Counted from the first letter of the stretch, positions 2,712 to 35,109 are shown. The stretch is 64,000 bases of DNA from Oligoflexia bacterium (GCA_963758495.1 CAVWVI010000001.1:1-64000), one strand, 5' to 3'. Notes: a model not told the origin generated them from the letters alone. Translations and numbers: made by a program.

Positions 2712-3657
2712 ACTAGTTTTCGGTGCTCCTGGTACCGGGAAGAGTTTTGATCTCCAAAAGGACCATCCGCAGGCTCTTCGAACCGTGTTTCATTCGGAAT
2801 ATGCGAATGCTGATTTTGTGGGAATGTCTCGCCCTAGTGCGGAACCAAGAGCAGACGGAACATCTGCAATTGTTTACAAATTTGTTCCTGGTCCTTTTGC
2901 AAAAGCTGTTGTGGCAGCAATTGAGGAGCCTGGAAATCTTGCTGTGCTGGTAGTTGAAGAAATTAATAGAGGAAATGCTGCAGCAATTTTTGGTGAGATT
3001 TTGCAGCTTTTGGATCGCGATTCTGACGGAAAGAGCACCTATTCTATTTCCATAGACGACGCATTTCACGAATATCTTATAGCTGTCTTAGGTGATAAGG
3101 CGCCCTCTCGGAATAAATTTAGGATTCCTAAGAATTTAGCGATAATTGGAACAATGAATAGTGCAGATCAAAGCGTGAATCCTTTGGATTCTGCCTTTAA
3201 AAGAAGATGGAACTTTGATTACAAGCCATTAGACTTTGAAAAGTGCTCGCTTAAGAACGAAATGGTTCAATATGGTGGTAGATCGATAGAATGGAAGAAA
3301 CTGGCCTTGGCTCTAAATCAAGCTTTGCTTGATGCGGGGTTTCCGGAAGATCGATGTGTTGGACCTTACTTTTTACATGAAGGTGAACATGGAGACAAGG
3401 AGCGAGTCGCTAATAAACTCATTCATTATCTCTACGAAGATGTTCTCAGGTTTGAAGAAAATAAATCTTGTATTTTCAGAGTCAAAAATGCTGTTAAAGA
3501 TGTGGAGTTGTCTTTTCAAAGTATGAAGGCACTCTTTGTAGAAGGGCAAAAAATTTTCAGCGACAAGATAAATATAGAGCTTTTTGACTCTTCAGTTTCG
3601 GAGTTTCCAGTCAAAAACACCCAGAAAGCGAAGGATAGTGGTGAAAAGGCCGCTTGA
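2605..3657 (+). CDS. mcrB: McrB-family AAA+ NTPase (LlaJI R1-like); start uncertain
   Basis: Walker A GAPGTGKS, Walker B VVEEINRGN, McrB signature TMNSADQS and LDSAFKRRW. Confidence 0.9.
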   Translation: MPMRILHYFWIASVWKIRPVKKRRPDEPKSVKGFNKLVFGAPGTGKSFDLQKDHPQALRTVFHSEYANADFVGMSRPSAEPRADGTSAIVYKFVPGPFAKAVVAAIEEPGNLAVLVVEEINRGNAAAIFGEILQLLDRDSDGKSTYSISIDDAFHEYLIAVLGDKAPSRNKFRIPKNLAIIGTMNSADQSVNPLDSAFKRRWNFDYKPLDFEKCSLKNEMVQYGGRSIEWKKLALALNQALLDAGFPEDRCVGPYFLHEGEHGDKERVANKLIHYLYEDVLRFEENKSCIFRVKNAVKDVELSFQSMKALFVEGQKIFSDKINIELFDSSVSEFPVKNTQKAKDSGEKAA

Positions 3658-5017
3658 ACCTAACCCCATTGTGTTGGTTGATGGGAATCCCCTTCCTACG
3701 AATATTAAGTTCTTCAATGAGCTTTTGAATTTTTTGCGTTATAATGGCTTAGTTTCTGGTAGAAATAGTATTGAACGCGTTGACTTTTGTGGCCTTGTCC
3801 AAATACATGATCAGTTATTTCTTTTTCTTCCAAAAACTCTTGATCCCCATCTGTCACAACAAACTCTATCGCAGTTCAAGCTCCTTTTAAGAGTGCTTCG
3901 AAAGTATAGTCGCTCCGAATCAGAGGAGATAGCTGAGTCTAAAGGTGGGCTGATAGGTGAGCACGCGACTTTCGATTTGGCTTGGAACATCCTTGAAGAT
4001 TGGGGTCGATATGGCTTCTACAGACCAGAGCAGAAACAAATTTTATTATATAATCAAGGAAAAATAAATTGGTCACGGACTATCAGGTCAGTGGGACCAA
4101 TCTATTCGAATGAAGGCCCAATTTATACTGAGTTCTATAGAAATATGTCTGAACAACATCACGAGAATTTTATAAGGAAGCTGCACAGGTATGTTGTTAC
4201 ACGATGCTATAATCAGTTTGGGTGGCTTCAATCTGGGTCGATTCCAGAACTTTCAGATTCTGATGCCTTAGAGTTTAAATATAAGAAGCAGTTTGCAATA
4301 GCCCAACTTAAAATAGAGCGAGGTAAGACCAGTTCTGACAGGAATATGCGCCTATTTGATCTTATTGAAGTATTTATTCGAACTGAGGGAATGAAAAGTA
4401 ACGAGATTAAAGCGGCTTTTGGGTTGAACTCATTTTGGAGAGTGTGGGAGAAAATGTGTGCTGAAATTCTGGGTAACGACTTAAGGTCTATTGCCAGCAT
4501 TCTTCCTCAGCCGGAATATCGAACTCCTGATAAGCGCTTCACAAATACTGCGTTTGGAGCAATTGAAACGAGAACGACTCAGAGGCCAGATATTGTGTTA
4601 GTTTCTAGCGATATTGTTGCTGTGCTAGATGCAAAATACTACGATACAAATCATTCGATGCCATCGTGGCCTGATCTGGTTAAGCAGTTTCTATATGCGA
4701 ATACTTTGAAAACTGTTTTTAATGATAAAAAAATTTTGAATATTTTGATCTTTCCAGGAAAAAGAGAAGTAGTTCCGGAAGCACTGACGTCTGCGCCCTT
4801 TGCAGCACTTTATTCTGATGGAAAGATGCTAAATGTACTGGGTCATGTTTTTTGCCTTTGCTGCGATCTCGAAGATTTTATGAGAAAGTATGTGCATGGT
4901 ATCTCTGGATTTGAATTGAAAGAAAGGTTGCTTGAACTGGGTCGGTCGCATCAAACTGGGGATGATAAATTAAAGGAAACACATCCGGTTGAAATGCTGA
5001 AGACAAAGATTAGATGA
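3638..5017 (+). CDS. LlaJI-family / McrC-like PD-(D/E)XK restriction endonuclease subunit
   Basis: GKINWSRTI, QRPDIV...VLDAKYY...WPDLVKQFLY. Overlaps the end of mcrB. Confidence 0.88.
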   Translation: MVKRPLEPNPIVLVDGNPLPTNIKFFNELLNFLRYNGLVSGRNSIERVDFCGLVQIHDQLFLFLPKTLDPHLSQQTLSQFKLLLRVLRKYSRSESEEIAESKGGLIGEHATFDLAWNILEDWGRYGFYRPEQKQILLYNQGKINWSRTIRSVGPIYSNEGPIYTEFYRNMSEQHHENFIRKLHRYVVTRCYNQFGWLQSGSIPELSDSDALEFKYKKQFAIAQLKIERGKTSSDRNMRLFDLIEVFIRTEGMKSNEIKAAFGLNSFWRVWEKMCAEILGNDLRSIASILPQPEYRTPDKRFTNTAFGAIETRTTQRPDIVLVSSDIVAVLDAKYYDTNHSMPSWPDLVKQFLYANTLKTVFNDKKILNILIFPGKREVVPEALTSAPFAALYSDGKMLNVLGHVFCLCCDLEDFMRKYVHGISGFELKERLLELGRSHQTGDDKLKETHPVEMLKTKIR

Positions 5018-8424: not shown

Positions 8425-8520
8425 CTTTGGCAACCCGGCTAACAAGAGCTGTCGGGGTATTCAGCTCGTAGTCCCGTGGCTTTGCGTCCCGGCCTTTCGA
8501 CCGGTTTGCCTTTTTCAAAG
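8425..8520 (-). promoter_or_regulatory. Cyclic di-GMP-I (GEMM) riboswitch aptamer
   Basis: Minus strand CTTTGAAAAAGGCAAACCGGTC-GAAA-GGCCGGGACGCAAAGCCACGGGACTA...TAGCCGGGTTGCCAAAG matches the GEMM-I consensus; P1 is CTTTG/CAAAG. Confidence 0.9.
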
Positions 8521-10382: not shown

Positions 10383-11944
<1,562 letters not shown>

Positions 11945-12111
11945 ACATTTCTCACGCAAGTGACGAAACATTCCGGTCAAGTCTCATTTACTTTTTGGAA
12001 GTTTTAGGATGACCAAAAATTTTATTGAGATTTAAAGTCCTCTCTTCTCCATTTTCTCTTTCAAGCGATTCACCACATCAGTTTTAATTAGCAATCTGGC
12101 TGCGATCCAGC

Positions 12112-12188
<77 letters not shown>

Positions 12189-12687
12189 AGATTGTTAAGA
12201 ATGATAAGTTTAGCCAAGGAAGTAATTCTTTGGGTCACGGGCAGTGGATTTATCCAGGGTCAGTGATGAGGGATCTTTGACAACAGAATAGTACAGTTAA
12301 AATAAAGTGTGATGAATGGATTAGACTTTTTAACGAAAGTTTATGAAGTGGCATCACGCTCTCATGAATAAGAAAATGCTGAAGGAGCTTTTTATGGAAG
12401 TTAAATTTCATAAGAAGTTAAAATGTATACTGATAGAAGGAAGTCGAAGGAAAGCTTTTTATTTTTTAAAAGGAATAGGAAGAGTTCACGAGATGGATGG
12501 AAATCAGGAACACGAACAAAATATCTGAACAAAGAAACGAGCGAACCGAATAGATGGATTCGAGACGACTTTGAACTGAAAAATCTGAATGGAGCGAAAG
12601 TGAAGTGAGGAGATTTCAGAGATCTGCGAATAGGCGAAGAGTAGAAAAAGTGAGCTAGGCAACTAGGTCATTGATTCAAGCTAGAAA

Positions 12688-15678
<2,991 letters not shown>

Positions 15679-15858
15679 ATTTTTAATAAAATACCTGTAA
15701 AGGTATCGAGTTAAAATGAATTCTGATGCGAAAATCAAAGAGTTAAATCTCTTTTTTTATTCTTCCCTATTCTCAGGTTTCTGAGAAGGGACTCAGCCTT
15801 TGTCTAAAAACAGTTTTAACTGTGCTTCATTCTGTCGCACAGAGATCTCTCCCAAGTT

Positions 15859-15976
15859 TGGGGGTGTCTATAGCGGCGGGGTTACACCTGATCCCATCCC
15901 GAACTCAGAAGTTAAGCCTGCCCGCGGCGAAACTAGTACCGAGGTAGCTCGGCGCTAACATAGCTCGATGCCCCCA
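15859..15976 (+). rRNA. rrf: 5S rRNA
   Basis: CACCTGATCCCATCCCGAACTCAGAAGTTAAGC core, terminal helix TGGGGGTGTC/GATGCCCCCA, then a T-tract. Confidence 0.95.
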
Positions 15977-22853: not shown

Positions 22854-22906
22854 AACATGACTGCCATGACTTGACAAGCCTATTGAGGCGATTATACTTA
22901 TTATTT

Positions 22907-24526
22907 ATGCTAAAAATATTAAATATGTCTAGAGTGACGGGGGTGGTTATCTCGCGACGGCGACATGACTTGCTTATTTTAATCAGCCTTTTTTCTATTC
23001 TATTATCCAATTCCACAAGCTATGCATTTTTTGGCAATAACGATCAACTTCTGTTTTCAATAAAATTGAATCAAACCGAAAAATCCTTGAAGATCATTCA
23101 ATCAGAAAAACCTAAAAAGAAATCTTCCTTTAAACTATTTTCCAGACTTTCAAAGAAAAAGTCTCCGTTAGAAGCTACGGACCAAGATGGAAAGACACCT
23201 TTGATGCTTGCTATTGAAATGGATCAGAAAGAGATTGCGAAAGCCTTGATCATGAGAGACGTTGATCTGGATCACCGTGATAAAAATGGAGACGCTGCTC
23301 TCATGTATGCTCTTAAAAAGGGAGACATTCAGTTAGCTGGCGAAATGGTGGATCGGGGAGCGGATTTAAATTTTAAAAATAAATTAGGACTGGCTCCATT
23401 AGATTTGCTTTTACCCCAGCTCACTGTATCTCATCCTCGTTCAACAGAACTCCAAACTTTAACTGCCCAAACTTTAGCTGCCAAAAATTTAGTTGTCCGA
23501 AATTTAGTTGTCCAAAATTTAGTTGTAAAAATGCTGAAGAAAAGATCTCAGATTTCTTCGAAAATAGGGAAGGAGTGGCTTGAGAATTTCGCTCGTACTG
23601 GCAAGTTTCCTGAAGTAGTTCAAGCTTTAAAAGAAAAAGGAATCCAATACAACGGGAGTCAGAGTGTTGAGCGGTTGACCGCAGCGGACAAGGAAAATGG
23701 GGGCGAGAAAAATAAAACGAACCCATTAAAATTATTAACACTCAATTTATGGCAATTTCCCTATGGAATAGAATCAAAAAATAATAATAAGAGAGCCCAT
23801 TTACTGACAGATAAAATAAATTTAAAATCAGATCAATTCGATGTCCTTACTTTTCAAGAGTTATGGTCGAATAAAACTCGAAAAGGGATCTACGACCGTA
23901 TAAAAAACAAATATCCTTTTAAAGCGGAAGATCAATCGTTGGGAGCCTACGGTGTGGCTTTTCACTCTGGCTTAGCTATTTATAGCAAGTTTCCCATTCT
24001 GAGAAAAGTTCAGCATGTTTTTAAACATTACCGAGGCCACGAAAATTTTGCTAAAAAAGGAGTACTAGGAGTGGAATTGGATGTGAATGGAGAGTCCGTC
24101 TATGTTTTTACGACCCACCTTCAAGCAGGGAGTGGTGGACCTGTATTTGAGAAATACATAGATCGTGGAAAACCTTCTACAACTGAAATGAGTGCCTTGC
24201 AGTTAAAAGAAGCTAAGGAAGTGATTCAGAAATTTATCCGTAATAAAGACGCTCCTGTTCTGTTAGCGGGAGATTTTAATATTACTGCTGGCAACGAAGA
24301 GTATGACGATGCCTTGAAGGCACTCGAAAATGCGAGAGATACCTTTAATCCTTCAAAGTCAAAATATAAAGCCACCTCGTGGAATGATCCATGTGGCAAG
24401 AATAGAATTGATTACATCATGGCTTTAAGTGAAAAAGTGAAGGGGATCTCAGAAGTGGTCGATTATTTTGGCCCTGATGTCACGGATCATTTAGGAGCCA
24501 TGGGTTCTTTTGATATCTCGAGATAA
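22907..24526 (+). CDS. Exported ankyrin-repeat / EEP (sphingomyelinase C-like) fusion protein; start 22907 or 22925
   Basis: Signal-like hydrophobic stretch ending SYA; ankyrin motifs GKTPLMLA, GDAALMYA, GLAPLDL; EEP motifs TLNL, TFQELW, KKGVL, TTHLQAG, AGDFNI, RIDYI, TDH. Confidence 0.85.
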   Translation: MLKILNMSRVTGVVISRRRHDLLILISLFSILLSNSTSYAFFGNNDQLLFSIKLNQTEKSLKIIQSEKPKKKSSFKLFSRLSKKKSPLEATDQDGKTPLMLAIEMDQKEIAKALIMRDVDLDHRDKNGDAALMYALKKGDIQLAGEMVDRGADLNFKNKLGLAPLDLLLPQLTVSHPRSTELQTLTAQTLAAKNLVVRNLVVQNLVVKMLKKRSQISSKIGKEWLENFARTGKFPEVVQALKEKGIQYNGSQSVERLTAADKENGGEKNKTNPLKLLTLNLWQFPYGIESKNNNKRAHLLTDKINLKSDQFDVLTFQELWSNKTRKGIYDRIKNKYPFKAEDQSLGAYGVAFHSGLAIYSKFPILRKVQHVFKHYRGHENFAKKGVLGVELDVNGESVYVFTTHLQAGSGGPVFEKYIDRGKPSTTEMSALQLKEAKEVIQKFIRNKDAPVLLAGDFNITAGNEEYDDALKALENARDTFNPSKSKYKATSWNDPCGKNRIDYIMALSEKVKGISEVVDYFGPDVTDHLGAMGSFDISR

Positions 24527-33344: not shown

Positions 33345-33674
33345 TTATTTTTTTTTAGCTTTGGTTTTAGCTTTGGCTTTCTTTTTTGGTGCTTTTGCTG
33401 GAGCGGTAAAGGGAGTGATGCTGTCCTCGACCATTTCCATTTCAACGGCTTTTTTATTCATACCGACTTTTTTAAGAAAGCCGAAGAAGGGAGTTTTTTC
33501 TCCAATTGTAAGATTTACAGCAACTTGATCGCTCTGTGCGACTTTGACGATTTCAGCAGCCATCTCTTGCACTTCGTTCATAGTGGAAAATTGAAAAATA
33601 TCTCCACCTTCAGGGCGGCCAGACTCGTCAGTAAATTCGTAGCGAAAGTAAATGGTACTCTTATTTTTTTTCAT
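33345..33674 (-). CDS. Hypothetical protein with Lys/Ala-rich tail
   Basis: AAGGAG RBS, 109 aa, KAPKKKAKAKTKAKKK tail. Confidence 0.75.
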   Translation of the reverse strand: MKKNKSTIYFRYEFTDESGRPEGGDIFQFSTMNEVQEMAAEIVKVAQSDQVAVNLTIGEKTPFFGFLKKVGMNKKAVEMEMVEDSITPFTAPAKAPKKKAKAKTKAKKK

Positions 33675-33713
33675 CGATTCTCCTTCGATATCATTTGTAG
33701 ATTGTACCCATAA

Positions 33714-33804
33714 ATAAAAAAACCCGCTTTTGCGGGTTTACTCATGTATGAGTCCGAAGCGGAGGATTTATATTCCTGACACTTCTCAGTAAATAGTTCT
33801 TAGA
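33714..33804 (-). ncRNA. Candidate ~90-nt sRNA or attenuated leader
   Basis: TTGCAA-17-TATAAT promoter (33839-33811) and intrinsic terminator AAACCCGC-AAAA-GCGGGTTT plus U-tract; no credible ORF between them. Confidence 0.55.
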
Positions 33805-34047
33805 TGCCCTATTATAAATATAAATTTTAGTAATTGCAATACAATATTAATTAAATCCTTGACTTGAGTCCAGTTACCTATTTAATCAAAAAACTTTATT
33901 AAAGTTAACAGAGGTAAATATTACGGTGCTTGTCAGCAGCCCTAAAGGAACTGCTTACTTCGATATTTTAGAGCCATTTCAGCCTTTTATGTACCACTTA
34001 TGTAAGTGTTGAGTTGAATTCCGACCCTATTAATGCTAATAAGCGCT

Positions 34048-35109
34048 ATGTTTTATAAATTAATTATATTAATAATAACTTTGGTTTCATTCGAAAGTGC
34101 TGCATTTTGTGCAGGTCGAGGTTTGCAAACTGAGAAATTACATTCAAATAATGAATTTAATCCACATTCGGCACGTATTAATAAACTCATGAATAGAATT
34201 CATGAGGCAGAAGGTTATTGTGTTTTTAGTGACGAAATAGTCATGATTCCCGAAGATGATCATTCTGAATCACCCTCTAAGCATTCCGAAAGCATTGAGC
34301 CTTCGAACACGGTTGTGTCGAATCAACACCTAGCTAAAATTTCTTCGGCTTTTGCGTCGACCCTTTTTTCATCTTTAGTGACTTATCCTCTTGATGTCAT
34401 AAAAAAGCGAAGCCAATTCAATACCTCACAACAGGGGCAATGGTTCAAAGGAAGTGGCGCTCACGCAGCTGCCATGTGTTTTTCTGTAGGGATAGGGATG
34501 TCTACCTATGAGGTATTAAAAGGTGAGCAGTGGTCCCCCTTTGCGGCTGGGGTTGTGGGTACCTTGTTAGCAAATACGACTACGACTCCCTTGTGGGTTT
34601 TTCAAGTCCGTACAGCCATGGCACCGGAGAAGCAGCCCTATAAAATCTCCCACTTTCTGAGAGATATCAAAGCACAACCTAAAACAGCCTTTCGAGGACA
34701 ATATGCCAACTTGCTTTCATTGGGGCCGCAGGCTGGATATTATCACTTGTATGAAGAATTTAATGATTTGCTCAAGCGCTCTATGAATCCTTCAGAACCC
34801 CCCTCAGGGAATTCCTCAGAGTCGTCTGATGGAATGTTGAATGAGATGGGTCAGCATGCACTGGCAGCAGGGAGTGCCAGAATTCTGGTCTTGATTCCTT
34901 CTTATCCTATAGATACCCTTCGGCTTCATCGCCAACAATATGGGACCTCTTATTCTGAAATTGCGCAAAAAATGCTGACTGAGGGCGGAGTTGCCAGATT
35001 TTACCGAGGATTTTTTTGGGCTACGTTAAGAGGTGCTGCTGGAACAGCGGTTTATATGGGTTTCTATCAAAAATTGAAAAAAAACATCGAGTCTTTTGAG
35101 GTAAACTAG
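34048..35109 (+). CDS. Mitochondrial carrier family (SLC25/MCF) protein with N-terminal signal peptide
   Basis: Three carrier repeats YPLDVIKKRSQ, TPLWVFQVRT, YPIDTLRLHRQ, each followed by a F/Y-K/R-G motif (WFKG, AFRG, EGGVARFYRG). Confidence 0.88.
   Translation: MFYKLIILIITLVSFESAAFCAGRGLQTEKLHSNNEFNPHSARINKLMNRIHEAEGYCVFSDEIVMIPEDDHSESPSKHSESIEPSNTVVSNQHLAKISSAFASTLFSSLVTYPLDVIKKRSQFNTSQQGQWFKGSGAHAAAMCFSVGIGMSTYEVLKGEQWSPFAAGVVGTLLANTTTTPLWVFQVRTAMAPEKQPYKISHFLRDIKAQPKTAFRGQYANLLSLGPQAGYYHLYEEFNDLLKRSMNPSEPPSGNSSESSDGMLNEMGQHALAAGSARILVLIPSYPIDTLRLHRQQYGTSYSEIAQKMLTEGGVARFYRGFFWATLRGAAGTAVYMGFYQKLKKNIESFEVN

Follow-up and report, generated by a model that had tools for sequence, protein, structure and literature searches.

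A bacterial chromosomal homolog of the mitochondrial carriers (SLC25) with a predicted Sec-type signal peptide

The SLC25 carriers have been regarded as a eukaryotic invention, and the few bacterial cases in print are either effectors or annotations that have gone unexamined. A passage of a 2026 preprint treats the family as one without known prokaryotic homologs (10.64898/2026.03.31.715626). A gene in the genome of an Oligoflexia bacterium raises the question of whether a bacterium can encode a true member of this family and, if so, where the protein would reside, what it would move, and how the gene arrived there. The DNA analyzed is a stretch of 64,000 nucleotides (GCA_963758495.1 CAVWVI010000001.1:1-64000), hereafter called the window, which is the first part of a 578,263-base contig. 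The genome, which is 3.66 Mb in five contigs and 92% complete, is labeled G000; P, L, and G numbers are our labels for proteins, loci, and genomes. An earlier note, made from the sequence alone, had described the gene as an intron-free SLC25 homolog that carries a signal peptide, and had proposed that it was horizontally acquired and that its product is exported to act on a eukaryotic host or prey. As detailed below, the identification as a carrier stands, and we place the protein, with somewhat better than even confidence and on the basis of its sequence features, in the inner membrane of the bacterium itself.

The gene is a single intron-free open reading frame (ORF) of 358 amino acids at positions 34033-35109 on the plus strand. 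The start at 34048 chosen in the earlier note is the second in-frame ATG and corresponds to Met6 of this frame. The Pfam profile Mito_carr (PF00153) matches the protein with 88.7 bits (E 2.2e-25; cut-off 22.3) in three stretches, which fall at 34330-34434, 34531-34779, and 34846-35088 on the DNA and score 20.6, 32.6, and 42.6 bits, respectively. The first repeat aligns only to profile positions 6-40, and no NCBIfam model matches the protein. A profile built from the carrier and its relatives aligns to UCP1 (E 2.2e-21) and UCP2 (E 2.2e-20) over the full carrier domain. The parts of the gene are as follows, where H1 to H6 denote the six carrier helices and pLDDT is the predicted local distance difference test score.

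34033..35109, plus strand: carrier gene, 358 codons and a stop; translation could also start at 34048, where MFYK... is similar to the MFK... with which relatives begin
34033..34110, plus strand: signal-peptide-like segment, residues 1-26, with an n-region (K9), a hydrophobic core, and an AFC|AG site; helix at residues 3-23 in the model
34111..34320, plus strand: acidic disordered linker, residues 27-96, with pLDDT <50 for residues 23-94 and 12 D/E versus 6 K/R
34321..34524, plus strand: carrier repeat 1, comprising H1, a short matrix loop without a matrix helix, and H2; PLDVIKKR (residue 119) at 34387-34410
34525..34785, plus strand: carrier repeat 2, comprising H3, a matrix helix, and H4; PLWVFQVR (residue 186) at 34588-34611
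34825..35100, plus strand: carrier repeat 3, comprising H5, a matrix helix, and H6; PIDTLRLH (residue 292) at 34906-34929, and the basic residue R333 aligning with substrate contact point III

The predicted structure agrees with this assignment. An AlphaFold2 model computed from 16 sequences (mean pLDDT 76; predicted TM-score, pTM, 0.67) contains a helix at residues 3-23, a disordered segment at residues 23-94, and a six-helix domain at residues 97-356, where block means of pLDDT run from about 60 to 96 and are mostly 83-96. When compared with the PDB by Foldseek, the model gave 13 matches at E<=0.001, all of them to mitochondrial carriers (UCP1, ADP/ATP carriers, and a Tetrahymena carrier) despite identities of 13-18% to solved carriers. 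The best TM-score by target was 0.67, and the next matches, to unrelated proteins, had TM-scores <0.2. Both the three Mito_carr matches and the carrier fold that the earlier note had anticipated are therefore found, and the protein is confirmed as a true three-repeat SLC25 homolog in a bacterial chromosome.

A carrier gene at such a locus might also be explained by a chimeric assembly or by eukaryotic contamination. The point in favor of this idea is that one public DNA run (X1, share 0.06) holds two identical 151-base contigs, at 33526-33676 and 33692-33842, so that reads are seen only for 33526-33842, short of the carrier gene and its junctions. Among the sequencing runs listed, no RNA run holds any of the stretch. 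Against the idea, the gene lies 34 kb into the contig with bacterial genes on both sides, has no introns, and has relatives in two other bacterial contexts. A full bacterial 16S-tRNA-23S-5S rRNA operon is located 18 kb away (10383-15976), and the window genes around the carrier are all bacterial, including those for lipopolysaccharide glycosyltransferases, PurB, FadB-like and FtsX-like proteins, DnaK, and GDPD, as well as an AI-2E permease, three histidine kinases, and a branched-chain amino-acid ABC system. The description of an intron-free gene among bacterial genes is thus accurate. The GC content of the carrier gene is 0.422, compared with 0.4217 for the genome, and its GC, third-position GC (GC3), and codon use rank at the 42nd-57th percentile of 1510 long ORFs of G000 (GC3 57th, codon score 52nd). 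Since the gene conforms to the genomic norm in this way, we take it to be neither contaminating DNA nor newly imported. On context and composition a chimera is very unlikely, and we give an artifact of either kind next to no chance.

Whether the gene is an isolated curiosity or part of a family is answered by its relatives. A word-indexed protein search returned only the carrier itself, and phmmer, run exhaustively against 1.84 billion representatives, gave 212 proteins at E<=0.001. The query heads this list and is followed by 15 full-length relatives (P0002-P0016; E 2.5e-53 to 3.6e-13, 27-41% identity, 318-392 amino acids), below which the matches drop to generic carriers at E 2e-9 or weaker. 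P0017 (E 3.6e-10) is a shortened gene call of a full-length family member in genome G059. The family as defined here contains 17 proteins, 16 of which enter the alignment-based counts given below, and its members are 19-43% identical to each other. All ten relatives that were looked up come from metagenome assemblies and are annotated 'hypothetical protein'. The closest relative (P0151/P0002) is 41% identical by phmmer and 35% identical by BLASTP. On its locus, L016, it adjoins gidA-gidB-parA-parB-bactofilin-atpFHAG, a block that is syntenic with contig 3 of G000 and whose proteins are 91% (AtpA), 81% (ParA), 74% (GidA), and 68% (ParB) identical to their G000 counterparts. The identity of this housekeeping block indicates that the closest carrier relative derives from a related bacterium, yet resides at a different locus.

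The distribution of these carriers is narrow. Mito_carr is the assignment of only one gene in a Pfam search of the whole G000 genome, the carrier gene itself. PF00153 was recorded in six of 116 genomes of the order, one of which (G077) was dropped from the counts as a false positive, its 'Mito_carr' match lying within a histidine kinase; G000 and all four genomes of genus g9 are left. In a sample of 401 genomes from across the phylum, the family profile matches two, G000 and G059, and no member of the carrier family was found in 14 control prokaryotes. Single-protein scans of genome contigs with P0001 and P0152 as queries gave no match, the protein atlas returned only generic carrier clusters, below 0.9, and plasmid and phage records gave no tblastn match to the carrier.

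A second, very divergent Mito_carr subfamily is present in all four g9 genomes (L004/G008, L006/G059, L007/G060, and L008/G058), where it is recognizable by the motifs EFPAEN..VRMQ and a Pfam score of 68.6 bits. Their N-terminus is likewise hydrophobic and their linker acidic. In two of the four loci (L004 and L006), the g9 carrier gene comes after one for a protein of 376-412 amino acids that lacks a Pfam family and ends ...MWGF or ...MWGDS, and in three (L004, L006, and L007) it faces a CBS-domain gene; neither neighbor was seen at L008 among ORFs of at least 250 amino acids. The member of the main family in G059 (locus L015) adjoins a gene at 2865-3674 for a DUF2608 protein that is weakly similar to HAD acid phosphatases.

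Sequence conservation within the family offers a first indication of function. The prolines P119, P186, and P292 and the loop glycines G140 and G222 are present in all 16 aligned members, and G326 is present in 15. On H1, the acidic position is D/E in 13 members, the basic position is K/R in 15, and the glutamine brace (Q128) is kept in 15, and on H5 the corresponding acid (D/E) and base (R) are found in 14 and 15 members. The H1 and H5 sequences of the present protein, PLDVIK and PIDTLR, are canonical forms of P-x-[DE]-x-x-[KR], and H3 carries the variant PLWVFQ. The H2 motif Y-[DE]-x-x-[KR] has Y/F, D/E, and K/R each in 14-15 members and is complete here (YEVLK). A basic residue occupies contact point III in 14 members (R333 here). 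The contact point and gate positions in the alignment were assigned according to what we take to be their established places in carriers. Because gate, proline, and glycine residues have persisted while the members have diverged to 19-43% identity, the pattern argues for the carrier being a transporter under selection.

Ahead of the carrier domain, the family shares an arrangement that its eukaryotic counterparts do not have. The N-terminal core of the present protein is LIILIITLVSF, 11 residues with a best 10-residue Kyte-Doolittle mean of 3.21, and no other part of the protein is as hydrophobic. The signal peptide was called by heuristics (n-region, core hydrophobicity, and small-residue site) and by family conservation. 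A hydrophobic N-terminal segment (best 10-residue Kyte-Doolittle mean 1.8-3.3) that leads up to a small-residue site (consensus A-F-A) occurs in 15 of the 16 aligned members, and an acidic linker of 45-94 residues with a net charge of -3 to -16 likewise occurs in 15; P0016 is the exception for both. Averaged over all 16 members, the linker is 62 residues long with a net charge of -8.0, and the G059 family member has the same layout of signal and linker. As a prediction, then, the signal peptide followed by a hydrophilic linker (70 residues in this protein) was well described in the earlier note. Within the linker of the present protein, a hydrophobic-acidic motif, YCVFSDEIVMI, spans residues 62-72 (34216-34248); its strict pattern recurs in 7 of 16 members and a looser form in others, and it could be a docking or plug element.

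The charges of the carrier domain are distributed unevenly between its two faces. Averaged over the 16 members, the three matrix-side loops contain 4.9, 7.1, and 6.2 K+R and have net charges of +2.9, +4.4, and +2.8, whereas the two short outer loops average 0.2 and 0.1 K+R and the C-terminal end has a net charge of -1.2. Such an asymmetry is what the positive-inside rule would lead one to expect of a protein in the bacterial inner membrane with its two ends in the periplasm.

From these features, a working scheme can be proposed. The hydrophobic N-terminal signal would take the nascent carrier to SRP (the signal recognition particle) and Sec, and signal peptidase would cleave it at AFC|AG, leaving in the periplasm an acidic tail about 70 residues long. 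The six weakly hydrophobic helices would then insert in the same sense as in mitochondria, their two ends outside and the K/R-rich 'matrix' loops facing the cytoplasm. Once in place, the carrier might move a phosphorylated solute, most likely a nucleotide, a dinucleotide, or another cofactor, across the inner membrane by alternating access, and this transport might serve uptake from prey or a host or exchange with the periplasm. In this scheme we infer the cleavage, the location, the direction, and the substrate. Taken as a whole, a clade-specific working SLC25 carrier for a phosphorylated solute in the bacterium's own inner membrane seems to us the best explanation, and one that we hold only slightly more probable than not to be right in full.

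Several observations underlie the choice of the bacterium's own membrane. According to a passage in one review, hydrophobic segments route proteins to SRP and the inner membrane, and membrane effectors mostly stay under that threshold (PMC12981334). The very hydrophobic signal of the carrier, the charge pattern, and the fact that the VirB4-family type IV secretion ATPase (PF03135) was not found in the 92% complete G000, in a search that did not extend to Dot/Icm-specific families, are the reasons for favoring this location. The recurrence of the signal and acidic linker layout in the g9 subfamily was counted in the same direction. In addition, mitochondrial carriers can function in the membranes of Escherichia coli and Lactococcus.

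Other observations weigh against this view. The six carrier helices are weakly hydrophobic, with a mean Kyte-Doolittle value of 0.54 versus 0.71 in other carriers (p 0.0002), and for this reason Sec might pass the carrier to the periplasm instead of integrating it. With 67 Ank_2 matches (for example at C4:926-935 kb and C5:43-51 kb), G000 ranks first in its bacterial family of 75 genomes, of which 52 have at least one match and the next richest have 35, 29, and 23; this richness, together with an ankyrin-phosphoesterase protein encoded near the carrier, suggests dealings with eukaryotic cells. Also, the matrix helix is missing from repeat 1 in the model, where the loop is 22 residues long in 11 of 16 members compared with about 45 and 35 residues in repeats 2 and 3, and repeat 2, with W188 and Q191 in this protein, weakens the network of matrix salt bridges. 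Finally, G000 has NadA, FolP, RibH, and PyrF and consequently no apparent need to import nicotinamide adenine dinucleotide (NAD), folate, flavin, or pyrimidines.

Some of these same facts could be read as signs of an exported effector, which after Sec passage would be kept soluble in the periplasm and then leave the producer, for instance by way of vesicles or at a point of contact, to reach the mitochondria of a eukaryotic host or, from the periplasmic side, the inner membrane of prey, where it would drain or disturb nucleotide and cofactor pools. A precedent exists in LncP of Legionella pneumophila, which like the mitochondrial carrier family (MCF) proteins of L. longbeachae and Neorickettsia sennetsu is described as encoded by a bacterium and as having six helices and a triple signature, and which reaches host mitochondria through the Dot/Icm type IV system and carries ATP (Dolezal et al. 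2012, PMC3252375). Helices no more hydrophobic than those of post-translationally imported carriers, the 67 ankyrin matches, and the ankyrin-phosphoesterase protein 10 kb away would suit an effector, as would the lack of any NAD, folate, flavin, or pyrimidine auxotrophy. The same is true of a patchy distribution in which carriers are 19-43% identical while the housekeeping proteins of relatives are 68-91% identical, which is common for host-interaction genes. However, known carrier effectors do not use a cleavable Sec-type signal, as far as they have been described. In the text of the LncP paper, the phrase 'signal peptide' has no occurrence (PMC3252375), and the present carrier, with its predicted Sec-type signal and no VirB4 found in its genome, is set apart from LncP by this description rather than by sequence; judged by VirB4 and by the signal, it does not show the marks of type IV delivery. 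There is, moreover, no known route for a six-helix protein across the outer membrane, and the distribution of charges agrees with the positive-inside rule for the membrane of the producer. To our knowledge, the conserved acidic tail has no counterpart among mitochondrial import signals. The step that the earlier note took from a signal peptide to export into a host or prey is hence not supported, as an SRP-type signal, an acidic N-tail (mean net -8), and K/R-rich matrix loops fit insertion into the bacterium's own inner membrane, and no VirB4 was found in the 92% complete genome. We regard an exported effector as unlikely. Less probable still is a carrier that a predator installs, being handed through the periplasm to the membrane of prey or a host from a side resembling the intermembrane space and siphoning off nucleotides and cofactors.

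It is also conceivable that the fold serves a membrane role other than classical transport, such as that of a channel, leak, scaffold, or sensor. The repeat-2 matrix motif, which lacks both of its charges here (W188 and Q191), would be understandable in such a protein, as would the repeat 1 features noted above and the partial cytoplasmic motifs, which read YEEFN on H4 and YQKLK on H6 in this protein and across the family retain the H4 base (K/R) in only 3 of 16 members and the H6 acid (D/E) in 4. However, the prolines, the glycines, most gate charges, Q128, and the basic residue at contact point III are kept at 19-43% identity, and known eukaryotic transporters of NAD, pyrimidine nucleotides, and folate or flavin adenine dinucleotide (FAD) also have a P-x-W sequence. 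A non-transport role is accordingly improbable in our judgment, and a working carrier in the inner membrane remains the reading that we prefer.

The likely origin of the gene was approached with two unrooted trees, in which 17 family rows were set against 69 and 74 other carriers. Of 133 general matches, 53 were left out by length or start residue; tree 1 also omits 15 rows of <75% fill, including four g9-type rows, and tree 2 omits the six longest branches. The 17 family rows form one group in both trees (Shimodaira-Hasegawa-like approximate likelihood ratio, SH-aLRT, 99) on a stem of 0.9-1.1 changes per column. In tree 1, the sister group of the family consists of 18 leaves, 16 of which are P-x-W carriers, with a weak support of 71. 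In each of the two trees, seven of the ten nearest outside leaves carry P-x-W, a grouping that in tree 2 is visible only as path distance. A single origin of the family and the g9 subfamily is neither shown nor rejected (approximately unbiased, AU, test p 0.44). Viral carriers in BFVD gave 14 matches at E<=0.001 with 14-20% identity and are no closer than eukaryotic ones.

Since the distribution is patchy and narrow and the clade lies beside one carrier group, the evidence favors the view that this bacterial lineage acquired the gene from a eukaryote long ago and that the gene then adapted to Sec and diverged greatly. Horizontal acquisition, as proposed in the earlier note, thus gains support in this older form; a recent acquisition does not, given the typical GC and codon use and the old, divergent bacterial clade. 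It might instead be argued that the carrier descends from a pre-eukaryotic bacterial SLC25 lineage rather than from a eukaryotic gene, considering that the clade is monophyletic, has a long stem, and is fully adapted to the genome. Such a lineage is hard to reconcile with so narrow a distribution (5 of 116 genomes of the order, 2 of 401 genomes of the phylum, and none of 14 controls) and with the tree that puts the clade beside P-x-W carriers (support 71) and not outside all carriers, and we consider this origin highly improbable.

The P-x-W sequence also provides the best available hint to the substrate. The tryptophan in repeat 2 that the earlier note had pointed out is W188 of PLWVFQVR. It is shared by 13 of the 16 aligned members, none of which has D/E at this position, and the base of the pair is R in 11 members and Q191 here. 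P-x-W occurs in repeat 2 of 21 of the 133 other carriers found and in 3 of the 33 best non-family phmmer matches. In eukaryotes, P-x-W (as P-[IL]-W) is a feature of the carriers for NAD+ (Ndt1/2), pyrimidine nucleotides (Rim2, SLC25A33/36), and folate/FAD (SLC25A32, Flx1), and the P-x-W sequences near the family may be of the NAD, pyrimidine, or folate-FAD type. The family is like the P-x-W carriers in its tryptophan at the acidic position of repeat 2 and in having them as its nearest outsiders in both trees. It differs in that the sister relation is weak and in that G000 makes NAD, folate, flavin, and pyrimidines itself. Thus, a nucleotide or phosphorylated cofactor is a reasonable candidate substrate, although somewhat short of an even chance. 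No ThiC (thiamine pyrimidine synthase) turned up in the 92% complete G000, and the organism may be a thiamine auxotroph. A TLC ATP/ADP translocase was likewise not found in G000, which is a weak negative because no control genome gave a match.

How does this carrier compare with those already known? Like the eukaryotic SLC25 proteins of solved structure (UCP1, 8hbv; UCP2, 2lck; ADP/ATP carrier, 1okc, 4c9h, and 6gci), it has three tandem repeats, a six-helix barrel, proline-kinked odd-numbered helices with P-x-[DE]-x-x-[KR], and [YF][DE]xx[KR] on H2. Unlike them, it is encoded by a bacterial chromosome and begins with a predicted Sec-type signal and an acidic tail some 70 residues long; its repeat 1 is devoid of the matrix helix, and in repeat 2 the charged pair is replaced by W and Q. 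The carriers of giant viruses, nudiviruses, and a hytrosavirus have the same fold, with a best TM-score by target of 0.75. MCF transporters of Babela massiliensis (TM6/Dependentiae) appear, in a passage of its description, among the cell's own uptake systems (PMC4378268); they too are bacterial, but belong to another phylum. Within the literature covered, which does not extend to subscription journals, we found no description of signal-peptide-bearing bacterial carriers, and apart from the Babela passage none of carriers in Bdellovibrionota or Dependentiae.

The remaining features of the locus are of more local interest. The carrier gene appears to be monocistronic, and it is preceded by the following region.

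33675..34032, plus strand: AT-rich intergenic region upstream of the carrier

In this region, four promoter-like sites were found compared with 4.6 expected from shuffles, which is no excess, and a reading of the upstream sequence showed no clear Shine-Dalgarno sequence before either carrier ATG (34033 or 34048). The best ortholog of the neighboring AI-2E permease, with 72% identity, is in G070, on a 5.4-kb contig that does not hold the other neighbors of the carrier. Divergent from the carrier, a 109-amino-acid ORF at 33345-33674 (minus strand) has a lysine/alanine-rich tail resembling that of histone H1 and has no Pfam family. The ankyrin-phosphoesterase protein mentioned above is encoded at 22871-24526 (plus strand), 10 kb from the carrier; its 551 amino acids join ankyrin repeats to an endonuclease/exonuclease/phosphatase domain, which is a eukaryote-like, effector-type architecture. 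A c-di-GMP-I-GGC riboswitch aptamer is located at 8425-8519 (minus strand; 72.9 bits).

Overall, the gene can be seen as a lineage-specific variant of the known SLC25 family, for which the mode of action suggested by its sequence is plausible. It would mean that a conserved bacterial clade has rebuilt a carrier for the bacterial export machinery by means of a signal peptide and an acidic periplasmic tail, and the protein would therefore constitute a natural test of how Sec/YidC, rather than TIM22, can insert the carrier fold. It may also be an easily expressed version of the fold for structural work. For bacteria that feed on other cells, it is a candidate for one of their unidentified uptake systems for nucleotides or cofactors, and for the family as a whole, it adds bacterial sequences that accounts of the origin and spread of SLC25 must place.

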